From contig JAHPZH010000003.1 in assembly GCA_019058315.1 (NCBI GenBank), positions 716,451-780,450 on the forward strand: a stretch of 64,000 nucleotides of DNA. Direction: 5' to 3'. The DNA is from Candidatus Helarchaeota archaeon (GTDB lineage: Archaea > Asgardarchaeota > Lokiarchaeia > Helarchaeales > RDOG01). Positions 2,981-45,666 of the stretch are shown piece after piece (the stretch's first letter is position 1; every line of letters starts with the position of its first letter). The translations under genes were made by a program, and so were the position numbers. Under the pieces are notes generated by a model. It saw only the letters and a list, made by a program, of their open reading frames with translations. It did no database searches and had not been told where the DNA came from.

Positions 2981-4210
2981 TTGGATAGAAATATAAAAAC
3001 TTTTTACATTAGGCAATTTTTTCATAACTTATGGTTCATCGTTCCTGTTCTTGTAAGTTTTTACAATGAACTGGGATTAACCTTTGGTCAAGTATTATTA
3101 TTACAATCTGTTTCAGCAATATCAGCCATTGTATTTAGTGTTCCATCTGGTTTATTAGCTGACAGAATCGGTCGCAAAAAAGTTCTTTTATTAGGTATAT
3201 TTTTACTTAACATCTTCATGTTTTTTTATTTATTTGTGGTCAATTTCTTTGAATTTGTAATTCTCGATATTATTTATGGAGCGTCTCTCGCTTTAATCTC
3301 TGCAGAGTTTCCTTTAGTTTCTGATACGTTAGTAGAAATTGACAAAGAAGAAATAACTACAAAAGTTTTTTCAAACGGAAACACAATCTTAATCCTTTCA
3401 TTTATGGCAAGCAATATAGCTCTAATATTTTTAATTGATTATGGATATCGATTTACAATTCTATGTTCCCTCATAGCATTTATCATAAGTTTTTTTATAG
3501 CTTTATTAGGTTTCAGAGAACCTAGAATTAAACATAGAGAAAAGGAACAAACTAAAAATTTCAGATTTCATTTAGGAAAAATGAATGAATACTGTAGGAA
3601 AGATCATTTCTTATTGTATTTAATAATTATTGGTTCAGTGTATCTTTCTATTTCATATTTAGCTTTTTGGGTCGTGCAACCATATTATACAGAATGCAAC
3701 TTGCCAATAGAATCGTTTGGGTTATTATTTGCAATAACTAATATGACTGAATTAATAGCTACTTACTTATCCTATAGAATCGAAAAGAAATTAGGAAAAA
3801 AAGCCACACTTTTAATTATTAATCTATTATTTCTTCTCGCTTTTTTAGGCATGAGCTTCATTTTCAATATTTTTGGATTAATTTTTGTTATTTTAAGACA
3901 AATTGGAAATGCTTTTGCGGTTCCAATATTTAATGCATATATAAGTGAAGAGATTACATATATGGAAAAATTAGAAAATGAAGATATTCCCTCCAGTAAA
4001 GCTACTATATATAGTGTTTATGCAATGTTAAACAATTTGATATTCTCAGTAGTATCTCCAATAACTGGATTTTTAGCAGATACAATATCCTTATCTTTTA
4101 CTCTAGTAATATTATTCCTTACGCTTTTTATATCACTAATTATTAATTTAATTCTATTAAGTAGACTGAGAATTATAAATAATAATGAATTAACCAAAAA
4201 ACTTTCATAA
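2981..4210 (+). CDS. MFS transporter
   Basis: Motif A 'GLLADRIGRKK' and ~12 hydrophobic segments. Confidence 0.9.
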   Translation: MDRNIKTFYIRQFFHNLWFIVPVLVSFYNELGLTFGQVLLLQSVSAISAIVFSVPSGLLADRIGRKKVLLLGIFLLNIFMFFYLFVVNFFEFVILDIIYGASLALISAEFPLVSDTLVEIDKEEITTKVFSNGNTILILSFMASNIALIFLIDYGYRFTILCSLIAFIISFFIALLGFREPRIKHREKEQTKNFRFHLGKMNEYCRKDHFLLYLIIIGSVYLSISYLAFWVVQPYYTECNLPIESFGLLFAITNMTELIATYLSYRIEKKLGKKATLLIINLLFLLAFLGMSFIFNIFGLIFVILRQIGNAFAVPIFNAYISEEITYMEKLENEDIPSSKATIYSVYAMLNNLIFSVVSPITGFLADTISLSFTLVILFLTLFISLIINLILLSRLRIINNNELTKKLS

Positions 4211-4242
4211 AAATATAAAATAGAAAAAATAGAAAATTAATC

Positions 4243-4575
4243 TTATACTGGGGGTTCTTTTCGGAATAATAACTTATACCAGAACCGTCTACCGTCTTTG
4301 GCGGTGACTGCTACAACAGTAGCTACTCCAAAAATTGCTGTAATGATAACTCCAATTAACAGAATTCTAAGGCCGTCAGATGGTAAATTCGTAAAGAATC
4401 CCAGAACACCTCCGGATCCCCAAACTAAATTAATTAGATCATCAAATGGATCGGCTGTAGCTGAATCCACAACAGCCCAAAGGGCACCAATAATTACAAG
4501 AACGATAAGAAATGGAACTAAAAAAACACAAGCTTCTTCAAAAACTCTTTGAATTTTCTCCACAGTATCCGTCAA
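4243..4575 (-). CDS. Small membrane protein of unknown function
   Basis: Two TM segments; GGTGA RBS upstream of TTG. Confidence 0.65.
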   Translation of the reverse strand: MTDTVEKIQRVFEEACVFLVPFLIVLVIIGALWAVVDSATADPFDDLINLVWGSGGVLGFFTNLPSDGLRILLIGVIITAIFGVATVVAVTAKDGRRFWYKLLFRKEPPV

Positions 4576-4716
4576 AGCCTTTCACCAAAAATAAAAATAT
4601 TCGCTATAACAATTATCTATATTTATTATAATATAAAGTTTTATACTTTCCGTATTGATAATTTTTGTCGGAAATCAACGATTAGTAATATAAGAAACGA
4701 TAGGGGTAATAATTCT

Positions 4717-5322
4717 TTATATTTTTATTTCAAATTTATTAAGTTCCGATTTTAAATTTAAGTTCGAATTAAATAAAATCGTATTAATACCTAATTTTTC
4801 AGCTCCTAAGCAAAAACTTTTAACATCATCGATAAATAGACATTCCTCTGGTGTCAGTTTATATCTTTGAATTAAAATTTCATAAATTTCTTTTTCAGGT
4901 TTAATTACATTTTCTTTATATGATATCACCATACCATCAAAGACTTTAAAGAAATCAAATAACGAGTAAACATATTCAAATGCTTCTTTGACAAAATTTG
5001 AGAGTGCATAGGTATTATATCCGTTTAATTTTAATTCTTTTAATATTTCAATAGTATTTTGAATAGGTGCAAATAATTCTTTCCAATTATCGAAAAAATG
5101 ATTCAGTAATTCTTCTTCTTCGGGATGTTCTTTTAAAAAAATTTCTCTAGCTTTTGGAATAGATATCGTTCCTCGATCTAATTTTAACCAAGTTTTGCTA
5201 CTTGTCACCTTTGAAATAAATCCAATAATTCGTTCTTCATCTTGAGTAATTTGTGAGAGGAGCTCTTTCGGTCTAAAAGTCAGTAATACATTTCCTATAT
5301 CAAAAACTATATTTTTAATCAA
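4717..5322 (-). CDS. HAD-family phosphatase
   Basis: FDIGNV, LSN, KP and FIDD motifs. Confidence 0.9.
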   Translation of the reverse strand: MIKNIVFDIGNVLLTFRPKELLSQITQDEERIIGFISKVTSSKTWLKLDRGTISIPKAREIFLKEHPEEEELLNHFFDNWKELFAPIQNTIEILKELKLNGYNTYALSNFVKEAFEYVYSLFDFFKVFDGMVISYKENVIKPEKEIYEILIQRYKLTPEECLFIDDVKSFCLGAEKLGINTILFNSNLNLKSELNKFEIKI

Positions 5323-5435
5323 ATTTCTCTTCCTTTTATTTCGCTAATAAAATTCTTTTTATCAAATTTTAAACAATTATTCTTAAATTAAAGAATTGTT
5401 CCTTAAAAAACAGATTACTTTTCAAGGTTTCAAAT

Positions 5436-5705
5436 ATGTCAGACATCGACCATTTCAAACTCCTTTTTAAACCAAAGAATGTTGCTGTAGTAGGTGCCAC
5501 AGCAAATGAAACAAAAGTTGGGGCAATGGTAGTAAGTAATATCAAAGCATGTGGGTATAAAAATGAAATTTTTTGTGTAAATCCAAGTGAGAAATATAAA
5601 AGTAAAAAAATTTTTGGTTTGAAAGTATATCCGAATTTAAAGAGTATTCCAGAACAGGTTGATCTTGCAACTATTGTTGTTCCTCCAGACCTTGTTGTTC
5701 ATAGT
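5436..5705 (+). pseudogene. 5' fragment of an NDP-forming acyl-CoA synthetase alpha subunit, cut by the element
   Basis: 'PKNVAVVGAT...VNP...YPNLKSIPEQVDLATIVVP' CoA-binding domain; homology ends where the IS605-type end begins (~5706). Confidence 0.9.
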
Positions 5706-5900
5706 ATGAACTACCATTCAGCAAGCTGAATGGTATTCGTCCCGAATTTGTCATCATACTCCTTGCGGAGTCGGAGGGACTGGCTGGTCCACGCAGCCCT
5801 TTGCCGAACATCTCAGAGACCTCTTGATGTAAGGCACTGTGTCAAAGTTCGTGAATTGTCGGGAGACTTTGCCCCGCTTTTATCCGTATTAAAGGCACCA
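5690..5900 (-). ncRNA. Predicted TnpB omega-RNA (reRNA); 5' boundary approximate
   Basis: GC-richer segment overlapping the tnpB 3' end and ending in the right-end hairpin. By the TnpB rule the guide is the flank, ACTATGAACAACAAGG. Confidence 0.6.
5706..5738 (-). repeat. IS200/IS605-type right-end hairpin
   Basis: TACCATTCAGC-AA-GCTGAATGGTA (5712-5735). The minus strand reads GAAT-hairpin-AGTTCAT, matching the guide/cleavage-site layout of IS608/ISDra2 right ends. Confidence 0.85.
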
Positions 5901-7216
5901 TTAAGCATGGCGGAGGCTGATAAATCCACATTATCCGCTGCCAACAATCTCACCTTCCGAACCATCGGAAAGTTCTTAACTGAAGGCACTTTTTTAAACT
6001 TTGACAGCAAATTTATATATCCTATTATTGTTTTTAACCCATTATTTATCTTATAAGCACCACTATACAAATCGATGAGCCCCTTTAGTGCAATGTTCAA
6101 TGAAGCATTTCTATCCCTATGATCGACATGACCACAATTGCTGCATTTAAACAATCTCTTATGTTTATGGGATTCTTTTTTAGTTTGGCAGAGCACACAG
6201 TTCTGGGAAGTATAGTGGGGACTCACGGCATAATTTGGATACCCGCGTATGAATGCTTTATACGTAATAAAATCTTGCAATTTTTTAAAACCCCAATGAT
6301 GGTACTTCAAATTATTCTTTTTACCCCAGTTTATATTATCCATAATATTTGTAAGATCTTCGAAAATAACCACAGGGTTTTGAAACTTCGAAATCCACTT
6401 AACTGCTACTTTGCTTGCGAGATGAAGGACATGATTTGTGATTTTTTGCTGCTTTCGCCCTATTTTTTTTATCATTGATTTATTGTTAACTTTTTGTAAT
6501 CTTTTTCGTATCTTAAAAAATTTATACCGTTGATAGACAAGGGGTGAAAAATCGATTATAAGTGATCCTAACACAACACCTCTGACATTCACGGCACTTA
6601 AAGCTACATTAGTCGTATTATTATCAATACCGATAAAAGTGTGATCCGTAGAACCATCAAATATCGGTTTTTTTCCTAAGTCCATATTAACAATCAAATA
6701 ATATTTTTTACCAATTTTCTTCAAATTTGCAGCCCCAAATTTTAGGGCTTCTGCAAGTCCCAGCTCGACTAATTTCATATGTCGCTCTGAACCTATAAAT
6801 TCCAAGATCAACCTTTCGTCCTTTCTCACACTAATTCTAACGCGATTTTTCGCTAAAATCTTATATCCTTCTTTATAATTGAGACGGGAAGTCATTAACC
6901 CATTCACAAGACTCGGTGGGCTTGCTCGTGGGTCCGTTTTTCGCTTTGCTAAATACGATTTTATCGATTCGCTAGTCACATCCCGGCAACATTGCCTAGT
7001 ATTTGCCAATATATTCGTTTTTACTTGACATTTCTCAAGAAAAGTTTTAGAATATCGACCGAGCTTGTTCCAATGCTCCAGATATTGGTTGTAGACCGCT
7101 CCAAACTCTCTCATAAGATCGTCCAATTGGTTTTTCACCTTTTTCGAGGTAACCAAAAGCTTGAATTTCAGCGCAATTATTAGGTTATCTTTTTTATTTT
7201 TACTATTCCATGGCAT
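5813..7216 (-). CDS. tnpB: TnpB RNA-guided endonuclease
   Basis: RuvC-I FIGID, RuvC-II IFEDL, YTSQxCxxC...CxxC Zn finger, RuvC-III HRDRNASLNI. Confidence 0.92.
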   Translation of the reverse strand: MPWNSKNKKDNLIIALKFKLLVTSKKVKNQLDDLMREFGAVYNQYLEHWNKLGRYSKTFLEKCQVKTNILANTRQCCRDVTSESIKSYLAKRKTDPRASPPSLVNGLMTSRLNYKEGYKILAKNRVRISVRKDERLILEFIGSERHMKLVELGLAEALKFGAANLKKIGKKYYLIVNMDLGKKPIFDGSTDHTFIGIDNNTTNVALSAVNVRGVVLGSLIIDFSPLVYQRYKFFKIRKRLQKVNNKSMIKKIGRKQQKITNHVLHLASKVAVKWISKFQNPVVIFEDLTNIMDNINWGKKNNLKYHHWGFKKLQDFITYKAFIRGYPNYAVSPHYTSQNCVLCQTKKESHKHKRLFKCSNCGHVDHRDRNASLNIALKGLIDLYSGAYKINNGLKTIIGYINLLSKFKKVPSVKNFPMVRKVRLLAADNVDLSASAMLNGAFNTDKSGAKSPDNSRTLTQCLTSRGL

Positions 7217-7497
7217 AACTTATTTATTATTCATTCATATATAAACCCCACTAATAATTTGGTTCAAAACAGACTTTTTCAAAACTTTATGACTATGAAC
7301 TTTAACATTCGCCGCTTTCCCCCGTTTCTCGACCTCATATCTGCTCTTAAATAAGCCTAGAGCCGGATTTGAGTCTAAAATCTTAAATTTATCATAAAGA
7401 AAAATGCATCAATTTTGCACTTTTTCGAAAGTGGTCTAAGAAAAAATTTAAATATTAGTCATCAAGCCCGACTACTACAAAATTTTTTCAAAAATTA

Positions 7498-10400
7498 ATG
7501 AAAATTTTGGAGTTGAAAAAGATGCCCGCAATGTCGTCATACTTTAATAAATTGAAATTACATCTAGAAAGGAATGATATTGAAGAAGATAAATTATATG
7601 AACATCAGAAAAGAGCTCACAAATTACTATTTGAGGGGTTTAATTTCTCAGCATTTGTTCCAACAGGTTTCGGAAAAACGGAAGACGCCCTTGCAGCTAT
7701 TGGACATGCCTTATATTGTAATTTGGTAGCGGTTTATCTTGTTCCCCGGGTGATGCTGCTCCACCAAAAAGCCAGACTATTGAAAACCTTCTTTAAGGGG
7801 GTAGCAAGGGTTATTGTCATCCAGGGGGATTTAAAACCTCATCCCAGGGAGTTGAAGGATCCATGGGGAAAGCTCATAATCGTAGCTACATTTGAAAGCT
7901 TCAGAGCTTTCCTATTTTCAGTCCAGAAAAGGCGATATTTTGATAGAAAAACGAATATCTTCGGTTCGGTAGTTATTGACGAAGTGCACATGCTCGGGGA
8001 TAGGACCCATGGACCTTCTCTTGAGACGATGCTGTATAAGTTGCACAAGGAACATGATTCTCAGTTTTGTTTTTTGAGTGGGAGTTTTGAAAAGAGCTCT
8101 GCTGATTGGTGGTGTAAAAGGTTCAACTGTAAATTAGAATACATGTCTCACGAAAGGGATTTTTATTGCTGGAATATTTACGCCGAGCAGTCTACTTTTA
8201 AATGGAAAGATGACAAGATCAAAGAATTATGCAATGAATTTTTAGAATTTCATATATCCCACGATATTCAGGATTTAGCAGAAATACGCCCCGGAAAGAT
8301 GGTGATTTTTATCAGTACTCGCAAAAGAACGGAAATTTATTGTAATAACGTTAAAAACTCCTTAGAATCGAGCAGACCGAACTATAAGGAACATTTTAAA
8401 TGCAGTTTTATTCATGCGGGCATGACATTGGAAGAAAGAAAACAAATTTTTGATGATTTTAACAGCGATAAAGGTGTTAGATTTCTTTTTTGTACAACAG
8501 TGATTGAAGTAGGTATCGATATAAAAAACATTGAAGTGGTCTTGATCGAAGATGCCCATAAATATTCAGCCATTAAAAGAACTCAAATGATTGGGAGGAT
8601 GAGGTTAAATCATGGAGTTGTCATAAATATGATTCCTCTATTTGCTAAACGCCGTTTTAAAAGATCTATCATATATGAGAAAACATATGCAGCGAAAAAG
8701 ATCTTACCTAGTGTAAATTTTGCACTGTTTAGCTGGTATTATTGGTTTTCTGGGAGAAAAAGAATATTTTGGAGTATAGAGTATCCTTCGGAAGAAAGTG
8801 AGAAAGATAGAACGATATTTCATTATTCTGATACAGAACCCATTAGAGGATATAAATTAGAAAAGATTACTAGCCGAATCGATCTTAGACATCTGCCTGA
8901 CCTAATCCTTGAATCGTTATTTCGAACCCAAAAGAGTTTATCACAAATAGAAGATCATTTAAAGAGCATAATGGGGGAGTATGTATTAGTAGATAGAAAT
9001 AAGAAAACGATCAAAAGGAAAATTCATGAATTCGTAGGTATGAAATATATAAGGTCTACTGGAAGCAAATTTAGTCTTACATATATTGGGGAGGCTATAG
9101 TGGAGGGACACTTACCATATTTTTTTGCTGATAGGATTCTAAGAACATTTGAGGTTTTTCCCGAGCTCCCTACTCGAGAAATAAAACTGTTAATTGGGGA
9201 ACTGGTCGCGATGAAAGAAGCTAGTTCCAAGAAGATGTGGGATGTAGAAATGTTCATTAAAAATTACAGTAAAGATCCGATTATATTTACCGAAAATCTT
9301 GAAAAATATAAAATTTTAAAAGGGGATGCGGAGGTTTATCGCCGTTGTGCTGCTTGGATAGCTAGCGCTATTTACCTACTCTATCGGGGATATCAATTTC
9401 ATAATTTTGTTGAAGAAATTCGAACTAACATCGAATGTATAAATTCTGTGTTGTTTTGGGCTAAATTTCATAGAAGAAACCTGGATTACCACCATGTGGC
9501 ACTAAAAGAGCCAAGGAAATTGTCTAAAAGAATTTGTAATAGAATAAATCGAATTATTAAAACGTTTCAAAAATCTGGGGTGAGGGTGAATCTGCAAAAA
9601 CCACCCATGTGGCCCTATCAGAAATATCATGATTCTAAAGGAGCTGCCGTTTTAAACAACAAGATTATTGAAGTATTAGGAGAATCTGATGATGAGGGAC
9701 TTACTATATTTGAAATGGCTCAAAAAATTAACTCTGACCCCGACTTCAAAAACACCCTTATTACAGAGTCCAGAATTGCAGGACGGTTGAAAAACAGCCT
9801 AGCATCACGGGTTGAGCGCATCAAGGTTTATACCAATACGGGGGCACCCCATTTTAGATATTACTTAAAGGGAAACCTGCCCGAGCAAAGCGAGTTCACA
9901 TGCGCAAATTGTAATAATTTTGAAAAAGACCCGGCTAAGCGAATTTCGACAGCGGGTACAGTTTATACCTGCCAAAAATTAGAGATGGCAGTAAACGCAA
10001 ATAACCCTTCGTGTGCTCATTTTGAGCCCTATGAAAATGAATCTAGGACGTTTGCTACTTTTCCATTCAAATGGAACATTGAAGTATGCCCCAAATGTAA
10101 TGCTAGAAAAACTATTAGAGTGCCTCAACATGGAGAAGCTACCATTTGTAAGCGCTGTAACGTCCTTGTTGAGCGAACGGACAACGGTACTTTTAGAGCG
10201 ACTACAAGGCATAAAGTCTCAGAAAATATTGTCCAAACTGACGATAAGGGGATGAAATATATTGAGACCGACCCGAATAAGAGGGTAGTTTATGTTCCAA
10301 CAGACCATACATTAACAACAGAATACATTCCCGAAGGAAATTATTATATAGTCAAAGTACGCGGACTTGGAATACGTTCTTTTTTAAAACAGGTCGCTGA

Positions 10401-19045: not shown

Positions 19046-19207
19046 ATGACGTATAAAATTGAATATTTTTATTTTGATTACAGTTTGGTATTAACGTGTT
19101 CATGTGGTAGAGTTTCTAAGCAATTCGGTTCGAACCATACCAATACGTTCAAGTGTTCGTGCGGATTAACATTTAAAGTGTTGCCAGAAGTAGTTAAAAT
19201 TAAATAA
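19046..19207 (+). CDS. 53-aa Zn-ribbon microprotein, copy 2
   Basis: Near-identical to 18481-18642 (CSCG...CSCG). Confidence 0.75.
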   Translation: MTYKIEYFYFDYSLVLTCSCGRVSKQFGSNHTNTFKCSCGLTFKVLPEVVKIK

Positions 19208-19319
19208 AAGGTTTATCTCAACAAAAAATTTAATAATTATAAACGACAATTTTTTAATCACAAGCTATTAGAGAGGGCATATTGTAATTGCGCTTTAAGA
19301 GCTTAAATTCTATTATTTC

Positions 19320-19892
19320 ATGAGGGTTAGAATGGATAGATCAAAATTTTTATTCTTAACAACTAAACACGGGAGACTTTCATTCGAAAGACCACCTAAG
19401 GGAATGAAAGATGTTATAATTGCAATTACCAGAAAAAATTTAGAGATAAAATCTAAAAAAACAGGAGAAATAAAGAAAATTCCTCTCAAACAGATAGAAA
19501 TGGCAGAAAAAATAGATAGTTCAAAAACTAGCTATGTAGGAACAGCCTTGTTTGGGACACCTCCGACTCAAGATAGAAAAATATACACAAAAATAATAGC
19601 TAAAAAAAGAAAACCTTTTTATATTACATTTATAAGTGGAATGTCTGGTTGGCAAGTGGATTTACACGATGAGTTCTATTCAATTTTGAAATCTAGAATT
19701 GATAAAATAGAAAAAGAAAGCGAATTACAAAAGTTAAAAGAATTGCAAAAACCCACCAATGTTTTTTATATAAATATTCCACCACAGACAAAATTAGCAG
19801 CTTTAAAATGTCCTTCATGCCAAGCACCATTAGAATATATGCCCCCTTGTAAATGTGAGCATTGTGGAGTCATGATTGAGTTAATGAAATAA
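19320..19892 (+). CDS. PH-like beta domain plus shared C-terminal Zn-ribbon tail
   Basis: Tail IPPQTKLAALKCPSCQAPLEYMPPCKCEHCGVMIELMK. The PH-like fold is an inference. Confidence 0.7.
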   Translation: MRVRMDRSKFLFLTTKHGRLSFERPPKGMKDVIIAITRKNLEIKSKKTGEIKKIPLKQIEMAEKIDSSKTSYVGTALFGTPPTQDRKIYTKIIAKKRKPFYITFISGMSGWQVDLHDEFYSILKSRIDKIEKESELQKLKELQKPTNVFYINIPPQTKLAALKCPSCQAPLEYMPPCKCEHCGVMIELMK

Positions 19893-20104: not shown

Positions 20105-20881
20105 TTGAAAGAATTTCTTGAACGATTGGAATGGATGAAAATAAACAAAATCAAAAATAATTCAGAAAAAAATGCACTAGTTGAGTTAAAAAATAGATAC
20201 GGATTACAAAATGAAGACTTTGAATTGGATAAAAGTGGTCATATAATAAAACTGAAAATAATCGGCAAGAAATTACATTTAATTCCAGAAATTTTAAGTG
20301 TCTTTTCCCAGTTACAAGATTTGAATCTTTCAAATAATGAAATTGTGAAAATAGAAAAGCTTGAAAATTTAACCCAATTAAAAGAATTAGACCTTAGTAA
20401 AAATCAGATAACAAAGATATCGGGTCTAGAAGACTTTACTAAGTTCCGAAAATTAGATCTTATGGGAAATCCTCTAGAGAAAGAAGATCAAGTTGTATAT
20501 AAAAAGGGAATAGCTACAGTAATTAAATATTGCCAAAAAAATAAAAGAATAGAGCTATTTAAAAAAAACTTACTTGATTATATTGCTCCTTATGATGAAA
20601 TGACATTTAAAAAAATAGCAGATCATTTCGAATTGGATGTGCTATTTGTTGAAAATGAGATTAAAAATATGTTAGAAAGTAAAAAAATTATTGGCAGATT
20701 GTTTCCTGATAAAATTATCTTAAGAGAATTAAGTCCGAAAATCGATCAGACTGTATATATAACAATTCCACCTAAAACAAAATTGACTGCCTTAAAATGT
20801 CCTTCTTGTCAAGCACCCCTAGAATACATACCTCCCTGTAAATGTGAGCATTGTGGGGTTATGATTGAATTAATGAAATAA
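20105..20881 (+). CDS. LRR plus PCI-like winged helix plus shared Zn-ribbon tail
   Basis: LxxLxLSxNxI repeats; 'YDEMTFKKIADHF..VENEIKNML..IIGRL'; same tail as 19320. Confidence 0.75.
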   Translation: MKEFLERLEWMKINKIKNNSEKNALVELKNRYGLQNEDFELDKSGHIIKLKIIGKKLHLIPEILSVFSQLQDLNLSNNEIVKIEKLENLTQLKELDLSKNQITKISGLEDFTKFRKLDLMGNPLEKEDQVVYKKGIATVIKYCQKNKRIELFKKNLLDYIAPYDEMTFKKIADHFELDVLFVENEIKNMLESKKIIGRLFPDKIILRELSPKIDQTVYITIPPKTKLTALKCPSCQAPLEYIPPCKCEHCGVMIELMK

Positions 20882-20978
20882 GAGAAGAAATTTTATGTTT
20901 AATACGGTTGGTACATAAATGATCCCCGTTGGCATCCTGAACAATGTTTAGATGATGAAAATATAGTAACTACATATA

Positions 20979-21092
20979 TTAACTTGTGCATGTGGTAGAG
21001 TATCCAAGCAATTAGGTTTGAACCATACAAATACATTCAAGTGTCCGTACGGGTTAACATATAAAGTGTTGCCGGAAGTAGTTAAAATTTAA
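20979..21092 (+). pseudogene. 5'-truncated third copy of the Zn-ribbon microgene
   Basis: LTCACGRVSKQLGLNHTNTFKCPYGLTYKVLPEVVKI*; in-frame stop upstream and a Cys->Tyr change. Confidence 0.75.
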
Positions 21093-21185
21093 TAATTATA
21101 CATATTAATAATAATTGATATATTAATTCAAAGATTATTTGAGGATCTTTTTTGAGGAGAAAATTATGAAATGGAGGTTTAAACC

Positions 21186-22172
21186 ATTACCGTAAGATCC
21201 GAAGATGTATTATTTCATTGTGAGAAACATGGCAGATTTACAAAGGAAATGACCTATTTTTATAGGATGATAGATTCAAGAATCTCAATAATTAATAAAA
21301 TTATTATAATTAGCCCGAAGAAGAGAAACCTTGGTGAAGTACGGATAGATATTGATAAAATCAAAACGATTAAGATGCATAAAGATAGCTTGAAAGGACC
21401 GGAACCATATTATGAAATTATTCTTGATAATAAAGAAAAATTTTTCATTACTTTTGCCTCTACATGGGGTTCTTCTACAAAAAATCTTCATAAACAATTT
21501 AAAGAAGTATTAAACCAGAAGTTAGGTATTTCTATAAAGCAAGGAATAGATAGAACTGGACCACCTGCATTTTCTTTTAAAATGGCTCCCAGAACGAGTT
21601 TAAAAGAAGAAAAACCATCATTATTTTTTGCTGAAAAACACGGTAGATATTCCGTGCAAAGACCACCAAAAGGATTAAAGGATTCATTTATAAAAATCAG
21701 CAAAGAGAATTTAACAATAGCAATAAAGATTTCTGGAGAGAGAATTAGAGTTCCACTTATAAATATAGATGTTGCTGAAAGAATCGATAGCTCTAAAACA
21801 AGTTATGTTGGCACAGCATTATTCGGAACTCCTCCTGTTCAACAAAGGAAAATTTATACTAAGATTATAACCAAAACGGGACAATCTTTCTATGTAACAT
21901 TTATAAGCGGAATGTCGGGTTGGCAAGTAGAACTACACGATGAATTTTATGCAATTTTAAGGTCACAGCTTGATAGAATTCAAAAGGAAAAAGAATTAGA
22001 AGAACTTAAGAAGATGCAGAAACCAACCAACGTATTTTACATAAATATCCCACCACAAACAAAATTATCTGCTCTAACAGCTTTAAAATGTCCTTCATGT
22101 CAAGCACCTTTGGAATATATGCCACCCTGTAAATGTGAGCATTGCGGGGTTATGATTGAATTAATGAAATAA
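21186..22172 (+). CDS. Tandem PH-like domains plus shared Zn-ribbon tail
   Basis: Second domain is very similar to 19320. Start extended from ATG 21249 to ATT 21186, which follows GGAGG and restores the 'FHCEKHGRFTK' motif. Confidence 0.7.
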   Translation: MTVRSEDVLFHCEKHGRFTKEMTYFYRMIDSRISIINKIIIISPKKRNLGEVRIDIDKIKTIKMHKDSLKGPEPYYEIILDNKEKFFITFASTWGSSTKNLHKQFKEVLNQKLGISIKQGIDRTGPPAFSFKMAPRTSLKEEKPSLFFAEKHGRYSVQRPPKGLKDSFIKISKENLTIAIKISGERIRVPLINIDVAERIDSSKTSYVGTALFGTPPVQQRKIYTKIITKTGQSFYVTFISGMSGWQVELHDEFYAILRSQLDRIQKEKELEELKKMQKPTNVFYINIPPQTKLSALTALKCPSCQAPLEYMPPCKCEHCGVMIELMK

Positions 22173-24303: not shown

Positions 24304-24915
24304 TTGTTATTAAATCTGACTGAACTAAAAAAACCAATTGATAAAAATCAATATAAAAAAAGCGAAATTGATTTTATAAAATATTTTAAAGTGAATAGAA
24401 TTGAATCAATAATAAATCAATTTACTATACTTTTAGAAAAATCAAGTAAAGAAGAAGAGATTCAAAAATTTTTAGAAAAATATCCTATTCTAATCAATCA
24501 ATATTCCAAAGTCTATCCAAAATTTAAATTAGGTGAAAATTACATAACGGATTTTGTTATTAAAAATATACTTGACCAAGGGATTCATTATACTTTAGTT
24601 GAAATAGAAAAATCAAATATGCGAGTGTTAAATAAGGATCGGACTTTCACCTCAGATTTTAACAAGGCATATAAGCAAGTTTTGGATTGGAAAGTGTGGC
24701 TCCAAAAAAATCAAGTTTATATCCAAGGGAAATTGGAAGGTTTTGAAAGCCCATCATTCATAATTATTGGTGGGCGTTCAGAAGGTATTTCAGAAAAGGG
24801 AAAAGAAAATATTCGAGCATGGAATAGGAGCCAAAATAATATCAAATTTTATACTTATGATGATATTTTAAAAAGAGTAGAAGAATATTTAAATAACATA
24901 AAGCAATATTCGTAA
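24304..24915 (+). CDS. DUF4263 / Shedu (SduA)-like nuclease domain
   Basis: EEEIQKFLE, DF, VEIEK, QVLDW, IIIGGR, TYDD. Confidence 0.8.
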   Translation: MLLNLTELKKPIDKNQYKKSEIDFIKYFKVNRIESIINQFTILLEKSSKEEEIQKFLEKYPILINQYSKVYPKFKLGENYITDFVIKNILDQGIHYTLVEIEKSNMRVLNKDRTFTSDFNKAYKQVLDWKVWLQKNQVYIQGKLEGFESPSFIIIGGRSEGISEKGKENIRAWNRSQNNIKFYTYDDILKRVEEYLNNIKQYS

Positions 24916-25758: not shown

Positions 25759-26805
25759 CTATGGTAGAATCCCACCCCATTTTTGAAAAATTATTTTTTC
25801 TTTTTTTAATCGAGGTAAGTCAAATTCATTTACAGGAATATTCGATTCTCCATGTCTTTGATAATATGTTAATTTATCTGTTTTAACTGCGTATAATTGA
25901 GGCATTCTTGGAATAAAAAAGACCAATACTATTTTGCCATTTTTAAGTTTGATTTCGTTGTAAATAACACCTTTTGTAGGTTCTAGAAATGGTGAAAGGT
26001 GGTTAAAAGAATTAAGAACATGTTGAACTTCACTTGGTGAAATTCCTTTTATTTCTTTAATTTGACTATTTTCTTCAAAAATCCCAATAATTATATGCCC
26101 TCCTTTGGTATTGGCAAATGCAGATATGGTTTTTGCTAACTTTTCTCCCTTTGAAATTGATTTAAATTCAATGAAGACACGTTTATTATGGTCAAGAAAA
26201 GAACCTTCCCGAATTAACTTATTTTTTAATTTAATTATAGTATCCATAGTAACATTTTCAATAGAATCAGGTATTAAATAATTAATTTCATGGAGAGAAT
26301 ATCTACCCAATTCTGTAATTTCCCAGTAAGAATTTCTAATAATTTTTGCTAAATCTTCGAGATAAATTCCTATATCATCATAGAGAAAATCTTTAATTTT
26401 TTCATAATCTTCTTTTTTTGAATTTATTTCCTCAAAAATATCTTTATAATAAACAAAACAATGTGTTGGATTTCTTTCCCAAGCTTTATTTAATATCCTT
26501 AAGACATCATCCCCTACTTTTTTAAAGAATTGAGTTTCTAAGAATTCTTCATGGACTAATATTCCATAAGAACCGATTTGTAATTCGAAAAATTCCTCAT
26601 CAACATCTCCCTGAGCTGCTATCCAAACATAAAATCCTTTAGATTTGCCATCATATAATGCTCTTTTTAATTGAACTATTTCAATATGTTTATAATTTTT
26701 TTGAAGATAATCTAATACCTCAGTAAATTTAGATGGTTTTCCTTCTAATTTCTTATCATATAAAAACTTAATAGTTACTTTTTGTATTGCAGTAATTTCA
26801 AACAA
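25759..26805 (-). CDS. Protein with C-terminal AlbA_2 (Schlafen-like) domain
   Basis: IEFK...KTISAFANTKGGHIIIGI...YYQRHG. Confidence 0.85.
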   Translation of the reverse strand: MFEITAIQKVTIKFLYDKKLEGKPSKFTEVLDYLQKNYKHIEIVQLKRALYDGKSKGFYVWIAAQGDVDEEFFELQIGSYGILVHEEFLETQFFKKVGDDVLRILNKAWERNPTHCFVYYKDIFEEINSKKEDYEKIKDFLYDDIGIYLEDLAKIIRNSYWEITELGRYSLHEINYLIPDSIENVTMDTIIKLKNKLIREGSFLDHNKRVFIEFKSISKGEKLAKTISAFANTKGGHIIIGIFEENSQIKEIKGISPSEVQHVLNSFNHLSPFLEPTKGVIYNEIKLKNGKIVLVFFIPRMPQLYAVKTDKLTYYQRHGESNIPVNEFDLPRLKKEKIIFQKWGGILP

Positions 26806-38800: not shown

Positions 38801-41800
38801 TTAAATTGCAAACGGCAAATTTAAAAGATCCCAAATAATCGTTTTATCTTCCCTATCATATATTATTGTATCTAATTTAGTGAAAACAGTGTGGCGGATC
38901 TTGTCCGTAATGGTCTCGTCCTCCACTATTTTCACTAAGAGGTCGAAAAGCACTTCCTTATCCACATCATCACAACATAGTGTGGATTTTATAAATTCAC
39001 ATATGTATTCTATAGTATCTTCTGATTTAACTGTTTTAACAAGGTTAAAGAATTTGTCATTTATTTCCTCCCATTTCAATTGTATATTGCTTAAAGTTCT
39101 ATAATATTCTTTTTGAAAAATATCATCAGTATCTTGAGCAAAATTCCAGATTATATGTCCTATCTTAATTTTTCTACTTAATTTAAGCAATGGAAAATAA
39201 ATTAGTGGATTTAGATCTTGTAATAAAATTGATACTAATTTGGAAGATTCTAGATTATCACCTTCTAAGAAATTTAACATAATCTCAAAAAATATATTTG
39301 AAACAATTTTGTTTAAAGGGTGGGTTAAATAAAATACAGATTTATTTTTTTTGTACTCAGTAATCAACCCATTATAAATCTGAGATAAATGGGTTTGTTC
39401 AATGACTCCAAGTGATAAAGCAATAAATAAAAATCTACCCATGTGAAATATATTAACCCTTTCTGGAAAAATATCCAATATTTTTTCAAATAAATTTTTA
39501 AATCTAGTTTTTAATTTAGCAGAATCATCTGAAAGTCTCTCAAAATAAAAAATAACATTCTCAGATAGTATGATTTGACTTTTAGAATGTTTAATCTCAT
39601 TCTCAATAATATCAAAAATTAGATTTGTTGTTTCCAAATTACTCTTAAATGTAATATTTGGGGATAAGTAATAATGAACAGCTGAAAAATTATGTTCTTC
39701 AAACCATTTATTTATCTTTAAAATAGAATTTAGATTAGAAAAATCTTTCATTAAAGGTGTGCAATCATATGTTAACCAAATTTTAAATTTCAATGGGTCT
39801 ATTTCTTTATTGATAATCCCTGACTCGATTAAATTATTTAATTCTTGAATATCCTCTTGAAATTTCCCAACATCCCTATATTTTTCAATTAAATTTTTTA
39901 AATCTTTATGTAAATTTTTTACATCCTCAACATTTACAAAAAATCCAAAAAGATATCTTATTTCTTCATTAAAAAATGAAAATTCCAGTGTTTCATAAAA
40001 TTTCGATAATTTTTGAAAAAGTTCTTCGTCGGTTGGATTGATCATCAATTCAAAGATGTTAACTAGATACTTTATTACGCTATTAGAATCGTTTGAATAA
40101 AAATCAATAAATTTTTCAATAAGATTTTGTTCTTGGTCAATTAATTTTTTAATTTCTGGATAAATTATATATGGTATTAATATTCTATAATGTTTAAAAT
40201 TTCTAAATCCACGAAATATAATTACTGCCTTATTAAGTAAATAAATAAGGTGTACAACACTCCAAAGCAAGAGATTTTTTTTCAAGTTTTGATTATTCTT
40301 TACTTTTTCTTTTAAATATCTCCTTAAATCGTCATATTCTTCAATCGACCATCTTTTAGTTAGGTAAGACCCCTTAATTAAATTCAAAACTATTAATAAA
40401 TATCCGTTAATAGAAATACCAGTGTCAATATAATACTTGACATTGAGAATTGAAAGATTTATTTGCGATGCAACTTTTTCTAATCCAATATTTATGATTG
40501 AATTTTCTAAAAATTCTATTACCCACTTTTCATTTATATTATTTAAAATACCATTTTTAAGTGTTATAAACATTAAGTTCTTTAATTCTGAGTTCTGCCT
40601 TATTACTTCTAATATTTTTTCATCGAATCCAAACATATGAATATAAAATTCAATTAATCTAGATAATATAATCCCTTTATTTGATTCTATTTGTCTGTCT
40701 AACCAATCCTTAATAATTTGCCTATTTTCAAAATTTTTAAATGCTTCAGAAACCCACTTTATATCCCAATAAGGTATTTTCATATGGAGTAAAGATAATC
40801 CATATTCAATTACCTCTTTTTCAATAATAGAATTTTCAAATATTTTATCTCCTATCATACTAATGATTATTATTGTTCCCCTTCTTAATATATAATCAAA
40901 GTCTGTATCATCAATTTTCTTACAAATTTCAAATATTTTACCAATTTTATCAGGAAATTTTCTATTAATCCTCCCTGCTAGAAAAAAGGCAACGTTCATC
41001 CAATGTCTTTTTAACACAATTCCTTCAAATCTGTTGAAAATTTCATTTTCATTTCTTTTTATATCGCATAAATAAGCTGCTGCCAAAAATTCTCTAATTA
41101 CTGATATTGTAAAACCAAACTTTTCTGCTTTTGGACTCTCAATTAAGACTAATCGCTCACATGATTCTATAAATATCCGTTCCACTAATTCTTGCAAATC
41201 CTCTTCTCTTATTTTGTCTTCTTTTAAAACAAGATAGTAGTAACGGCAATATTTTTTAATTTGCTCTTTAAATTCTTCACTTCCCATAAGAGCAGACGAG
41301 CTTTGTTCTTCCATTCTTTTATGTAAAATAAATCCAAGGTATTTATGAAAACCTAAAATCAGTTCTTTATCTGTTGTTAATAAGAAAGACCGCAACTCTT
41401 TTTCGCGATCATAGACAGCATCAAGATAACGTTGATATAATTCTTCACGACGGGCTGGTGGCGAACCTTCTTTCAAGATAATAATTAATAAAATTGAAGT
41501 TTGATAAGGATTTTTAATAAGTAGATTTACGTTCTTATTTTTTAGACACTCTTCAAATTTTTCTTGTATTCTACTAATTTCCTCTGAATTTAATTTTAAT
41601 GCTCTAATCCATCTTCCTAAAAATTTTCTGGCTTTTTTTTCATCAAAAGGTTTTATTTCTAATTGAACTAAATTTAAAAAATTTAATTCTTCTGAGTAAC
41701 TATGAGGTCTAGAACTAAAAATAATTCTTAGATCACCATTTAATTGATTCCTTATAATATCAATAAAATTTCTGATATTTTCAAAAGTTTTCTCTCTTAA

Positions 41801-43234
41801 ATTGGAGTCAGGAATTTCATCTAACCCGTCCAATAATATTAAAACCTTATTTTTCTTAATAAATTCATGAATATCGTCATATGTCCTCGTAGTTACATTA
41901 TAAATAAAATCTCTCAGATAATGAAATAAATTATAATTAAATTTTCTATTTGACAACTCTTCTGCATAATCTTTAAGAAATATTAAAAAGGGAATTCGAT
42001 AAGGCAATTGACTATTTATTTGGACTTCATCTATATCTTCTAGTAGCTCAGACAATTTTCCAATAATATTAGCACAATATAATTGATTAGTGAATTGAAG
42101 TAATGTAGATTTTCCTGATGCAGGACCTCCCAGAACTAATATATCGGGATATTCTTCATTTAATAAAAATTTATGGGCTAATTTTTCTGGAATTCTCGGA
42201 AATTTTTCTGGAAATTTACCTTTTACATCCAAATCGATAAAAATCTTTTCTATTCTTATATTAGTATTTACTTTTCCACTTAAATAATATAATTTCGTAT
42301 TTTGGTTTGTATTATAACACTCTCGACAAAATATCTTAGTTGTGTCATCTATTTCTATATCATAAATTTGTTCTTCTGAGTCTTGATTTTTTATCAACCA
42401 TTCTATAAATTCAAAACAGAATTTTCCGACTGCCCTCGATGCTTCAATTTTATTTTCATCTTTATAGGGCGTTCCTCTTGAATCCGGATCGGCATTATCC
42501 ATTACGATACGGATATCTACCCATTCTATATTTCGGTAATTTTCTAAAACTTGAGCTGCACCAGCTACTTCCATTTCTATTCCATATAACTTCCATTCTA
42601 TATGTTTTAACGCATCTATTGGATCTTTTAATATATCTTCCCCTTTTTTGGGAGTATCTGCATCTAGTATGTTACCAGAAATTATTTTGCCATTATTCAG
42701 ACATTTAAATTTATTTTGAGGTCTTTCCTTAAGATGAGAAAAAAAATCTCCAGAGAGTTTTTCTCCCCAATTTTTAGATTCAAAAAATCTTTCTACTAAA
42801 TCTACTAACATTTTAGTGGGTCTATAAGGTTCACTATCCATTTTTTCTCCATTATCTGTCTTCTTAACCAAATCATAAGTAATTATTTGTTCAGGTACTA
42901 TCATATCTCCGATAAATACCTTCTTTGAATAAAAACCACCACAAACACCTATAATAAATACAAATCTTGGTTGCCATATTTTTAAGGCTTCTGTTAACAG
43001 ATTTTGTGTTTTTCTAAGTCCTGATTTGATTGGACATATCAGAACAATTGTAAATTCTTTATTTTCTAATTTGATTTTTCCAATATCATAAGGATGAATA
43101 AAATCGGTAAATTTTGGAATCACATTCGTAATTTTATTTGGTAAAAATTCTAGGATTGCATTACGTTCCTCTGTTGTTGGTGCAATAATAATTGCTTCTA
43201 CTTTTATTGGCAAATTTTTCTTTTTATCATCCAT
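38801..43234 (-). CDS. Nucleoside phosphorylase (PNP/MTAN-like)-NACHT STAND NTPase with helical sensor region
   Basis: PNP: GVCGG, GD, EME, IR..D.AD. NACHT: GGPASGKST, LLDGLDE, SSRP. Confidence 0.88.
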   Translation of the reverse strand: MDDKKKNLPIKVEAIIIAPTTEERNAILEFLPNKITNVIPKFTDFIHPYDIGKIKLENKEFTIVLICPIKSGLRKTQNLLTEALKIWQPRFVFIIGVCGGFYSKKVFIGDMIVPEQIITYDLVKKTDNGEKMDSEPYRPTKMLVDLVERFFESKNWGEKLSGDFFSHLKERPQNKFKCLNNGKIISGNILDADTPKKGEDILKDPIDALKHIEWKLYGIEMEVAGAAQVLENYRNIEWVDIRIVMDNADPDSRGTPYKDENKIEASRAVGKFCFEFIEWLIKNQDSEEQIYDIEIDDTTKIFCRECYNTNQNTKLYYLSGKVNTNIRIEKIFIDLDVKGKFPEKFPRIPEKLAHKFLLNEEYPDILVLGGPASGKSTLLQFTNQLYCANIIGKLSELLEDIDEVQINSQLPYRIPFLIFLKDYAEELSNRKFNYNLFHYLRDFIYNVTTRTYDDIHEFIKKNKVLILLDGLDEIPDSNLREKTFENIRNFIDIIRNQLNGDLRIIFSSRPHSYSEELNFLNLVQLEIKPFDEKKARKFLGRWIRALKLNSEEISRIQEKFEECLKNKNVNLLIKNPYQTSILLIIILKEGSPPARREELYQRYLDAVYDREKELRSFLLTTDKELILGFHKYLGFILHKRMEEQSSSALMGSEEFKEQIKKYCRYYYLVLKEDKIREEDLQELVERIFIESCERLVLIESPKAEKFGFTISVIREFLAAAYLCDIKRNENEIFNRFEGIVLKRHWMNVAFFLAGRINRKFPDKIGKIFEICKKIDDTDFDYILRRGTIIIISMIGDKIFENSIIEKEVIEYGLSLLHMKIPYWDIKWVSEAFKNFENRQIIKDWLDRQIESNKGIILSRLIEFYIHMFGFDEKILEVIRQNSELKNLMFITLKNGILNNINEKWVIEFLENSIINIGLEKVASQINLSILNVKYYIDTGISINGYLLIVLNLIKGSYLTKRWSIEEYDDLRRYLKEKVKNNQNLKKNLLLWSVVHLIYLLNKAVIIFRGFRNFKHYRILIPYIIYPEIKKLIDQEQNLIEKFIDFYSNDSNSVIKYLVNIFELMINPTDEELFQKLSKFYETLEFSFFNEEIRYLFGFFVNVEDVKNLHKDLKNLIEKYRDVGKFQEDIQELNNLIESGIINKEIDPLKFKIWLTYDCTPLMKDFSNLNSILKINKWFEEHNFSAVHYYLSPNITFKSNLETTNLIFDIIENEIKHSKSQIILSENVIFYFERLSDDSAKLKTRFKNLFEKILDIFPERVNIFHMGRFLFIALSLGVIEQTHLSQIYNGLITEYKKNKSVFYLTHPLNKIVSNIFFEIMLNFLEGDNLESSKLVSILLQDLNPLIYFPLLKLSRKIKIGHIIWNFAQDTDDIFQKEYYRTLSNIQLKWEEINDKFFNLVKTVKSEDTIEYICEFIKSTLCCDDVDKEVLFDLLVKIVEDETITDKIRHTVFTKLDTIIYDREDKTIIWDLLNLPFAI

Positions 43235-43740: not shown

Positions 43741-44442
43741 TTAAATTGAAAGATTATTTTCAATATTTACTTCTAAATATTTCAAAGGTAAGATTTCATA
43801 CCTGCCATTTTTACTAAAATTTAATTGGCTCATTCCCCTAAATTTCGTGATATAAGCACCAAAGATACGAAGAATCATATTTGGTTTAATATTCTGAATT
43901 TTCTCATCCCAAAGAGCACATTTAATACACCCAGTCTCATCTCCCAACACTGCGTTAGCAACCTTGTGCATTTTTCCGTCCTTTTCTAATCTTACATGCT
44001 TGAGATTATTGACATCCAATACTTTAACTTTTTCTAAATTAATGTTAGTGGTCTTGTGTTTTAGACGGGATATTTTTACGAATTTAAATCCCGGATAATC
44101 GTCTCTTTTCACAAGATTTTCATCTTCTCCATCATCTAATATTGACCATTTACCGTATTTTCCGATATTCAAAAATAATGTTCCATTAAACTCACTGACA
44201 TACCCATTTTCTATAAGAAGGCTATTGCCAAGAGCGATTTTATCTATTACAAACCCCCATACCGTTAAAATCATTGTTCCGGTCTCATCTCTAACCTTAT
44301 ATTCTGCAACTCGTTGTTTCTTATTATTCTTTTTGATTCGAACCATTCGTTCTGATACAAGTTCTAAGATTTTTACTTTAATATTAACACCCCTAGATTC
44401 AGAATTTAAATCTTGAATTTTAATCAGGTCCAAGATACTCAA
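43741..44442 (-). CDS. RPA/SSB-like protein with two OB folds
   Basis: Two copies of 'DETG...WxxxI...I.G.Y...F.G...L..KxG'. Confidence 0.88.
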   Translation of the reverse strand: MSILDLIKIQDLNSESRGVNIKVKILELVSERMVRIKKNNKKQRVAEYKVRDETGTMILTVWGFVIDKIALGNSLLIENGYVSEFNGTLFLNIGKYGKWSILDDGEDENLVKRDDYPGFKFVKISRLKHKTTNINLEKVKVLDVNNLKHVRLEKDGKMHKVANAVLGDETGCIKCALWDEKIQNIKPNMILRIFGAYITKFRGMSQLNFSKNGRYEILPLKYLEVNIENNLSI

Positions 44443-45479
44443 CCCCTTATTTCATCCTGTATAAACCCAGCACCCAATAAATAGACGGAGCAAGATTTTC
44501 GAATGATATCATTACGTTCACCAACAATAAATAATCGTTTATTTGAATCGAATTCATCAAACCTCATCTCAATGCGGGTGACTTCAGCAATCAATTTATA
44601 AAGTGTTGGTACTGTAATGAAATGGTCAGTTTCATTACATAAAAAGACCGTAGCGTTATGTTCCCTTGCAACTTCAACCAAGCGGTCGATTATTTTATTA
44701 TAAATGTCTTTTTCAATAAATAAGTGAATATTTTTCAGATTGAACGTAGTCGTTATGCTGTCGATAAAGATGAGGTTTGCATCAGTGTCACTAATAGTAG
44801 AACTTAAATCATATTTAACAAATGAGTATAGTTCTTCAATTGAGGATATTGAAATCAAAATAACATTGTTTATAATTTCAGTATGGTCAATTCCAAATCT
44901 TTTCGACATTTCAATAATGTGGTCTTCGCTGAAATTTCTTCCGGTGTCCATATAGATTACTGAACTTTTGGGTACCTCATCTTTATGTGAAATAAATGTG
45001 TTACAAATTAGTTGATGAAATAGGCTTGTCTTCCCAACTTTTCTTAGCCCATAAATTTCATAAAGCATCTGTGTAGAAAAGCCATTCTCAAGAACCGCAT
45101 CGAGTTTTTTACTTCCGCTTGAGAAGAAATGGGGTTTTTTTAAAGTCTGTACCTTTTCTTTGTATTCACCAAAGGGCTTTTCATTAATTACAGAATTTGA
45201 ATTTGAGTCTATAAATTTTTGAGTTTGCTTATTGAGCTTATTTTGGGCTTTTTCGTGAATTTCCCAAGCTTTGGCACCTGAAAGTCTGTATTTACGGAAT
45301 ATTGCAACTATCTCAGCACCTAAACGATTTGCTAAATCCATTACTGTAAAAATTTTTTCTCTTGTCAATATGTCTTTAATTGTCACAATTCCATCAGCGG
45401 CTAAGGCATCGATTAACTCCTCGTTAGTTGAGATATCTTCAATTTTATCATTAACACCAGCTATTTTATCTAAACTCAT
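44439..45479 (-). CDS. RadA paralogue (start probably ATG 45479)
   Basis: SGSKKLDAVL.NG, EIYGLRKVGKT, YMDTG, IFIDSI. Confidence 0.85.
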   Translation of the reverse strand: MSLDKIAGVNDKIEDISTNEELIDALAADGIVTIKDILTREKIFTVMDLANRLGAEIVAIFRKYRLSGAKAWEIHEKAQNKLNKQTQKFIDSNSNSVINEKPFGEYKEKVQTLKKPHFFSSGSKKLDAVLENGFSTQMLYEIYGLRKVGKTSLFHQLICNTFISHKDEVPKSSVIYMDTGRNFSEDHIIEMSKRFGIDHTEIINNVILISISSIEELYSFVKYDLSSTISDTDANLIFIDSITTTFNLKNIHLFIEKDIYNKIIDRLVEVAREHNATVFLCNETDHFITVPTLYKLIAEVTRIEMRFDEFDSNKRLFIVGERNDIIRKSCSVYLLGAGFIQDEIRG

Positions 45480-45530
45480 AATCAATAGTTTCACCTTTTA
45501 ATAACAGAATTTTATCAAGCTAGAGAATCT

Positions 45531-45550
45531 CTTTATAAATCTTTTTGTCG
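45531..45550 (-). promoter_or_regulatory. BRE/TATA promoter of the radA-like operon
   Basis: Minus strand CGACAAAAAGA-TTTATAAA about 55 nt upstream of the start. Confidence 0.5.
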
Positions 45551-45561
45551 TGCCAAGGTTA

Positions 45562-45642
45562 TCCGAAGACAAGATTACAGTAGATATTTTAAAGAAATTA
45601 ATTGAATATCGAAAATTTTTAGAGGCAAATAATGCACTTTAA
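45562..45642 (+). pseudogene. Possible orphan 3' tail of the interrupted acyl-CoA synthetase
   Basis: SEDKITVDILKKLIEYRKFLEANNAL* resembles the terminal helix of ACD alpha subunits; same strand as the 5' fragment. Confidence 0.35.
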
Positions 45643-45666
45643 AGAAAAAATTGAAAATTATATTAA

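Follow-up and report, generated by a model that had tools for sequence, protein, structure and literature searches.

The window, a 64,000-nt stretch of DNA, lies on contig C11 of an archaeal genome of 5.79 Mb and 30% GC, and an ADP-forming acetyl-CoA synthetase-like gene within it is interrupted by a block of 39,865 bp (5706–45570). The 5′ fragment of this gene (5436–5705, plus strand) comprises codons 1–90 and carries a Pfam CoA_binding_2 domain (4.9e-13). It shares 35% identity with a paralogue at 54552–56066, with homology up to 5696, and is 74% identical to a 492-aa orthologue (P0032, in locus L022), with homology up to the junction. The 3′ remnant (45571–45642, plus strand) consists of the last 23 codons and the stop and is 81% identical at the nucleotide level to the 3′ end of the L022 orthologue; these 72 nt are detectable only against that orthologue, and tblastn with the paralogue found no synthetase 3′ fragment in the window or the genome. 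In L022 the orthologue is followed by a 79-aa ORF, a metallo-beta-lactamase gene and a 151-aa ORF, and a syntenic trio (a small ORF, a metallo-beta-lactamase gene and a 150-aa ORF) begins at 45650 in the window. Because the 3′ remnant and these syntenic genes follow position 45570, the whole block lies inside one gene. A preliminary description of this DNA had taken the flank to be a host synthetase gene and the element to be about 40 kb long; both statements agree with codons 1–90 at one junction and with the position of both junctions in the same gene.

The interrupted gene is not complete. At the far end of the block it lacks codons about 91–468 (377 codons, about 1.13 kb), the TAM side of the insertion included; this gap could reflect either a later adjacent deletion or a by-product of an integration that was not of the IS605 type. 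A match on contig C9 that was considered as the missing synthetase part was rejected, as it is a succinyl-CoA synthetase. The window contains no tRNA genes, so the block is not a tRNA-targeting integrative element; aloposons (PMC8813620), whose giant genes differ and whose insertions are at tRNA sites, were rejected as well. Elsewhere in the window, the stretches 1330–2811 and 57396–59843 contain highly repetitive protein genes with Big_7/DUF7743-type repeats, which have dozens of paralogous stretches throughout the genome at 65–75% identity.

The first gene of the block, tnpB (5813–7216, minus strand), encodes a protein of 467 aa with a Cas12f1-like_TNB domain (PF07282, 3.5e-18), and its homologues in Helarchaeota are annotated as TnpB. 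Its RuvC-like triad (D198/E286/D368) and its CxxC...CxxC zinc finger (C340/C343/C358/C361) are present, D198 and D368 are invariant across the TnpB alignment, and the protein is apparently catalytically intact. A divergent intergenic region (7217–7497) separates tnpB from a giant gene (7498–13941, plus strand) for a 2147-aa helicase–Cas1 fusion (aCas1), in which DEAD (1.2e-17), Helicase_C (9.4e-18) and Cas_Cas1 (2.9e-6) domains all exceed the Pfam cut-off; a PDB sequence search with the Cas1 region returned no Cas1 match. Cas1 homologues in Asgard archaea have reportedly been described before. A motif of the form GCGCAAA...CTTTATATA...GCGCATT is kept upstream of tnpB in three divergent aCas1-linked copies (L011, 2100–2250; L012, on C6, 4348–4450; L017, 880–960); these copies probably share it as a promoter, with GCGC boxes in inverted orientation on either side.

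The head-to-head arrangement of tnpB and a giant helicase–Cas1 gene was found in six loci (the window, C11b, C6, L010, L011 and L017), over which TnpB identity spans 22–87%; the giant genes outside the window are homologous to the N-terminal part of the 2147-aa protein. C11b is a second copy on the same contig (C11:835914–843982), which in blastn matches window 5701–13804 at 81% and reaches the contig end. At the other extreme, the C6 locus pairs a 2600-aa giant gene with a TnpB that is only 22% identical. The genome encodes five giant Cas1-containing ORFs of 1474–2772 aa (C6:304697–312499, C7 at about 35.4 kb, C1 at about 396 kb, C11:840577 and the window), and TnpB adjoins only three of them, those in the window, C11b and C6. 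The Y1 transposase TnpA (PF01797) had no match in the 94%-complete genome, with positive controls, and none in the element. The helicase–Cas1 protein is a candidate transposase and presumably serves for moves to new sites.

Beyond the giant gene, a variable cargo (13942–43740) is rich in defence-type genes by Pfam: a HEPN/HepT-like gene (17393–17905), genes for a Shedu SduA_C protein (24304–24915) and a Schlafen AlbA_2 protein (25759–26805), and genes for a 1203-aa PRTase-CE protein (34592–38203) and a 1477-aa PNP-NACHT protein (38801–43234). A gene for an LRR+PCI protein (20105–20881) is present as well. Segments of this cargo recur syntenically on C2, C1, C10, C7 and the start of C11 with 83–97% identity. 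A non-coding unit of 120–240 bp is repeated three times in the element (18423–18663, 19033–19234 and 20977–21100) and occurs on C1, C2 and C11 at 86–95% identity; it stands upstream of paralogous ORFs (19320–19892 and 21249–22172).

The far end of the block is formed by a module of two genes (43741–45494, minus strand) for an SSB-like OB-fold protein and a Rad51/KaiC-like ATPase (Pfam), which is 87% identical to C2:13144–14647, and by a terminal segment (45495–45570), whose end is uncertain by about 15 nt. The terminal segment is common to C2:377252–377312; homology with that copy runs to 45570 and the flanks then differ. The C2 copy (C2:377252–384600) is internally deleted; pieces of tnpB and of the giant gene remain at one of its ends, and the far-end module and terminus at the other. 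Its cargo differs from that of the window, and it runs off the contig end within tnpB. Conserved ends around other cargo favour one composite element over an 8.2-kb unit.

The end next to tnpB could be placed to the base. Right ends in the source genome at C11:835920, C8:87 (the end occupying C8:1–87) and C6:302860 were compared with that of the window, together with loci L009, L010 and L011 from a Helarchaeota MAG (GCA_013375355.1). These seven copies, four from the source genome and three from the MAG, share an end reading ...GGTAGTTCAT (with the variant GGTAGTCCAT in L009), followed by unrelated flanks. Homology among them starts exactly at window 5706, and since the aligned copies all end there and give way to unrelated DNA, the element starts at 5706. 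The terminus itself (5706–5735, minus strand), kept in the seven aCas1-linked copies, consists of a subterminal hairpin and a terminal AGTTCAT. Read along the minus strand, the order is GAAT, the hairpin, AGTTCAT and then the host flank ACTATGAACAACAAGG (5705 down to 5690).

The preliminary description had also reported a perfect 11-bp inverted repeat at the junction, and the repeat is present: arm 1, TACCATTCAGC, occupies 5712–5722, arm 2, GCTGAATGGTA, occupies 5725–5735, and the loop between them is AA. It sits 6 nt inside the sharp boundary 5705|5706. Perfect inverted repeats of at least 11 bp with loops of at most 6 nt number four in the window vs 0.8 expected from Markov shuffles, and this one is the sole member of the four that is not almost pure A/T. 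Taken alone, without its position and conservation, the repeat is only mildly unusual. The hairpin is judged real because of its position and conservation, as the chance expectation alone does not exclude a fortuitous repeat. It is perfect in the window and L010 and has one or two mismatches in L009, L011 and C6, one of the changes in C6 being compensatory (G–C to A–T); in C11b and C8 it is degraded without compensation. Three TnpA-linked relatives (L018, L019/L020 and L045) also end in a hairpin and GGTAGTTCAC, followed by unrelated flank. A hairpin–GGTAGTTCA(T/C) end is common to TnpA-linked relatives at a TnpB identity of 38–39%, and the scaffold end GGTAGTTCA(T/C) was found in the seven aCas1-linked and three TnpA-linked copies, with unrelated flanks after it in each. 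The 11-bp inverted repeat is an IS200/IS605-type subterminal right-end hairpin, followed by the conserved terminal AGTTCAT.

Upstream of this terminus lies a structured region (5706–5997, minus strand; about 290 nt) that overlaps the 3′ end of tnpB and is delimited as an omega-RNA scaffold by GC content, folding and covariation, its 5′ limit being approximate. Its GC content is 47.6% vs 30.4% for the window, and its fold has a z-score of –2.9 against shuffles. In an alignment of eight sequences, which takes in two regions from classic tnpA–tnpB elements, RNAalifold gave 50 consensus pairs, 16 of them with compensatory double changes. Paired cells made up 92.5% of this alignment vs 85.4 ± 0.9% after column shuffling (0 of 500 shuffles reached the observed value), and a control with slid partners gave 26–44%. 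The TnpA-linked relatives L018, L019/L020 and L045 carry a 151-nt version of the same RNA. By this shared RNA and hairpin, the right end in the window is homologous to the right end and omega-RNA of canonical IS605 elements. Rfam gave no relevant match in a gathering-threshold scan of the whole window or a permissive scan of 5500–7600. When GTDB contigs were scanned for an exact pattern from the omega-RNA core, 45 matches were obtained, nearly all of them bacterial chance matches, and L045, from a Thermococci MAG, was the only true family member among them. With an intact TnpB, a covarying omega-RNA region and a boundary that is sharp in seven copies, the earlier identification of the junction as a TnpB right end is borne out.

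Immediately 3′ of the conserved end GGTAGTTCAT, the first 16 nt of the host flank (5690–5705, minus strand), ACTATGAACAACAAGG, form the predicted guide segment. The only exact match of this 16-mer in the genome is itself, and no other site matches with one mismatch or fewer. Contigs from four sediment metagenomes were compared with the window over 3000–9000, and two of them run on past the junction. One (X2), a contig of 1280 nt from another study that is about 96.6% identical, covers 4447–5707 and then continues with AGAAGATTGTGTTGATGT instead of the element; its continuation is in frame (...LVVHSIEDCVDV; ...HSIEDCVDV) and matches the orthologue, which reads SLEDCV. The other (X4) is identical over 5548–5707 and likewise continues. 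Judged by sequence comparison, these contigs carry the uninterrupted synthetase allele, which thus exists in related strains from other sediment samples. In the sense of tnpB, the sequence of the empty allele is ...CAATCTTCTAT and then ACTATGAACAACAAGG, with TCTAT immediately 5′ of the 16-mer; the AT at the junction could be assigned to either side. A check proposed earlier, for a TAM beside the protospacer in the empty allele, thus yielded TCTAT directly 5′ of ACTATGAACAACAAGG and favours the earlier reading, all of whose computationally testable parts agreed with the data. The occupied site presents TTCAT before the same 16-mer and should, by prediction, be spared. The position of both junctions in one gene, the uninterrupted allele and TCTAT 5′ of the 16-nt flank are new in this analysis. 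A search for an empty site in 40 related GTDB genomes found no close relative among them.

The left ends of the TnpA-linked elements L018 and L019/L020 bear on the meaning of this pentamer. Both read TCTAT|AGT, about 20 nt before a left-end hairpin and with unrelated DNA upstream, and the L020 contig starts exactly at the pentamer. Because these left ends adjoin it, TCTAT is the likely target and TAM of this TnpB lineage; as a functional TAM it is a candidate based on two related TnpA-linked elements and one junction. Collectively, the boundary, the structured RNA and the empty allele with TCTAT make the reading of the flank as a guide well supported in silico.

A 17-of-18 match to the right flank of the empty site (the 18 nt after the insertion point) lies at C3:577805–577822 (minus strand). 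It falls at the beginning of an ORF for an unrelated membrane protein and was set aside as a probable chance match; the number expected by chance is about 0.01. In the window copy, a predicted RNA fold indicates that the first guide bases can pair with the terminal GUUCAU. The junction contains a palindrome, GTTCAT-AGT-ATGAAC (5694–5711), in which the flank holds the inverted terminal hexamer 3 nt off; the hexamers pair in the predicted read-through RNA, and the palindrome is absent from the other copies. It is probably due to chance, and it could mask the start of the guide.

On balance, it is reasonably probable that 5706–5997 (minus strand) is the omega-RNA and right-end module of TnpB, that it forms the terminus of a 39,865-bp aCas1–TnpB element and that the flank serves as a guide for cutting of empty alleles and for homing. 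Read-through of tnpB would produce an omega-RNA that finishes with about 16 nt of host sequence, ACTATGAACAACAAGG, transcribed from the flank, if the RNA is expressed and ends at that distance. With TCTAT as the putative TAM, the TnpB–omega-RNA complex should cut empty alleles (TCTAT and the 16-mer) and spare the occupied site (TTCAT and the 16-mer). A cut allele might then be repaired from an occupied copy, by which the whole element would be copied in. Such a retention or homing role would replace the role that TnpB has for TnpA elements, and transposition to new sites would fall to the helicase–Cas1 protein. In this scheme TnpB may, as suggested earlier, protect or drive the entire 40-kb element. 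A more specific evolutionary proposal appears doubtful to us at present: the helicase–Cas1 protein would have replaced TnpA in an IS605-derived element, which kept its right end and its choice of TAM-adjacent sites, and a flank-programmed TnpB would home the 40-kb defence cargo. In a bolder version, TnpB–omega-RNA and Cas1 would cooperate in site choice.

The size of the guided unit is the point on which the first alternative turns. It is conceivable, and in our estimate unlikely, that only a 1.75-kb unit (TnpB, omega-RNA and right end) or an 8.2-kb unit (TnpB and helicase–Cas1) is mobile and guided, that the other 31 kb or so are an unrelated island and that the guide drives no 40 kb. Locus L009 speaks for this possibility: this copy of 1.75 kb contains TnpB alone, has the right end seen in the window and is flanked by unrelated host genes. 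Its homology is lost at about window 7452–7455, in the divergent intergenic region, next to TCGAT, which resembles a TAM; at the corresponding position C11b has TCTAT and the window has TTGAT. The TnpB unit may therefore once have been, or may still be, separately mobile. The variation of the cargo between copies points the same way. On the other side, both junctions of the 39.9-kb block fall in one gene, and no sequence resembling the synthetase comes after 7455 or 13941. Furthermore, the copy at 377–384 kb of C2 retains both termini around other cargo, the 8.2-kb limit of the C11 copy is the contig end, and the pairing of tnpB with the giant gene is kept over 22–87% TnpB identity. In the C11b/C2 copy, a TCTAT|AGT marks a putative left end, with a non-coding flank.

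A second alternative concerns the function of the terminus rather than its extent. The hairpin and GTTCAT might be only an end for recognition and cleavage by a transposase (aCas1, or TnpA acting in trans), with a TnpB that is not programmed by the flank and has an internal guide or a regulatory role; such roles are left open by PMC10691335. The end motif is indeed common to very different TnpBs, such as that of C6 at 22% identity, as expected for a transposase site, and PMC10691335 locates a hypervariable stretch ahead of a GTTCAC-like motif. However, every copy is homologous upstream of GTTCAY and non-homologous downstream, the RuvC triad is intact, a TAM-like TCTAT stands exactly at the empty-site junction, and the TnpA-linked relatives have the same layout, which is the canonical arrangement of omega-RNA and guide. 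These points make the second alternative quite improbable. A third alternative, that the 1.13-kb deletion beside the element fixed it as an immobile relic whose right end and guide have no present function, is very improbable. In its favour, the TAM-side flank and 377 codons are gone, a left-end structure was not found and several copies in the genome are fragmentary. Against it, the window copy has an intact tnpB, an intact giant gene and a perfect hairpin, copies at 80–97% identity in one genome indicate fairly recent activity, and a cut intact allele could still be repaired from the window locus.

Compared to IS200/IS605 elements, the block with its flank-derived guide shows both close likenesses and clear differences. 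In elements of the ISDra2 type, the guide is reportedly taken from the right-end flank, and the TAM is said to equal the target motif of TnpA. First, the block shares with IS200/IS605 elements a subterminal right-end hairpin followed by a short conserved cleavage motif, an omega-RNA that overlaps the 3′ end of tnpB, and a junction directly 3′ of the empty-site pentamer without target duplication on that side; its nearest non-Cas1 relatives, L018 and L019, are classic tnpA–tnpB elements with the same right end. Second, unlike IS200/IS605 elements, the block and its genome are without TnpA, the block is about 20 times larger and has no matching left-end hairpin, and its left side is a 1.13-kb host deletion rather than a clean TAM|LE junction. 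The far end adjoins synthetase codon ~469, not TCTAT, and the two known far-end flanks have no pentamer in common. No hairpin similar to that of the right end occurs elsewhere, including at the far end, and as far as sequence can tell an IS605 insertion does not account for the left-end side.

Casposons are transposons that use a Cas1 "casposase" and have terminal inverted repeats and a 14–15 bp target-site duplication. Like casposons, the element is a large self-mobile unit in archaea that presumably relies on a Cas1-family protein as its integrase. It differs from them in that its Cas1 is fused to a helicase (2147 aa) and is accompanied by TnpB. Furthermore, no terminal inverted repeat or direct repeat was found between the element ends, where local alignment remained at the shuffle level, and no target-site duplication was found at the element junctions. 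In Tn7-like CAST systems, the guided protein is nuclease-dead and selects new insertion sites. These systems are likewise large, carry cargo and join transposition functions to an RNA-guided protein from the TnpB/Cas12 lineage. The present TnpB, by contrast, has an intact nuclease triad, and its predicted guide matches the old site of the element itself, which points to homing or retention and not to targeting.

By its gene content, the element is a member of a published but untested type of Asgard aCas1–TnpB transposon. Altae-Tran et al. (2023; PMC10691335) associated aCas1 with TnpB in Asgard archaea (TnpB groups "Cas1H-Asgard-1/-2"), proposed aCas1 as the transposase, suggested that a variable stretch downstream of tnpB might be the guide and described flanking repeats. 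As in that account, tnpB here is paired with a giant helicase–Cas1 gene in the place of TnpA in an Asgard (Helarchaeota-like) genome, several copies occur per genome, and a variable stretch lies downstream of tnpB. Unlike the loci described in PMC10691335, the present element has its ends mapped to the base, measures 39.9 kb, carries defence-type cargo and comes with a natural empty allele and a candidate TAM, TCTAT. The flanking repeats reported there were not found here, where the two ends align at the shuffle level. The variable DNA at this locus follows GTTCAY, and PMC10691335 puts the variable region before a GTTCAC-like motif, so the two placements may differ.

At this locus the copy is intact, its right end is mapped to the base, and both a natural empty allele and a candidate TAM are available; the hypothesis on guide and TAM is therefore directly testable in a plasmid cleavage assay. 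To our knowledge, aCas1–TnpB elements had been predicted from gene neighbourhoods only, and their ends, target and guide had been defined by nobody. These elements can evidently carry about 30 kb of defence-type cargo. An element without TnpA that sits precisely 3′ of an IS605-type pentamer raises the question of what selected the site. If the doubtful proposal of a helicase–Cas1 protein in the place of TnpA and a homing TnpB is correct, a large island in the archaea most closely related to eukaryotes would have its own natural, RNA-guided gene drive.

A sequence related to the right-end hairpin was noted within the cargo as well. The 12-mer CTGAATGGTATT, which is identical to one hairpin arm and 3 nt, marks the exact start of the homology between window 30374–30933 and C7:628–1186, which match at 89%; it may be left over from another end or mark a site of recombination.
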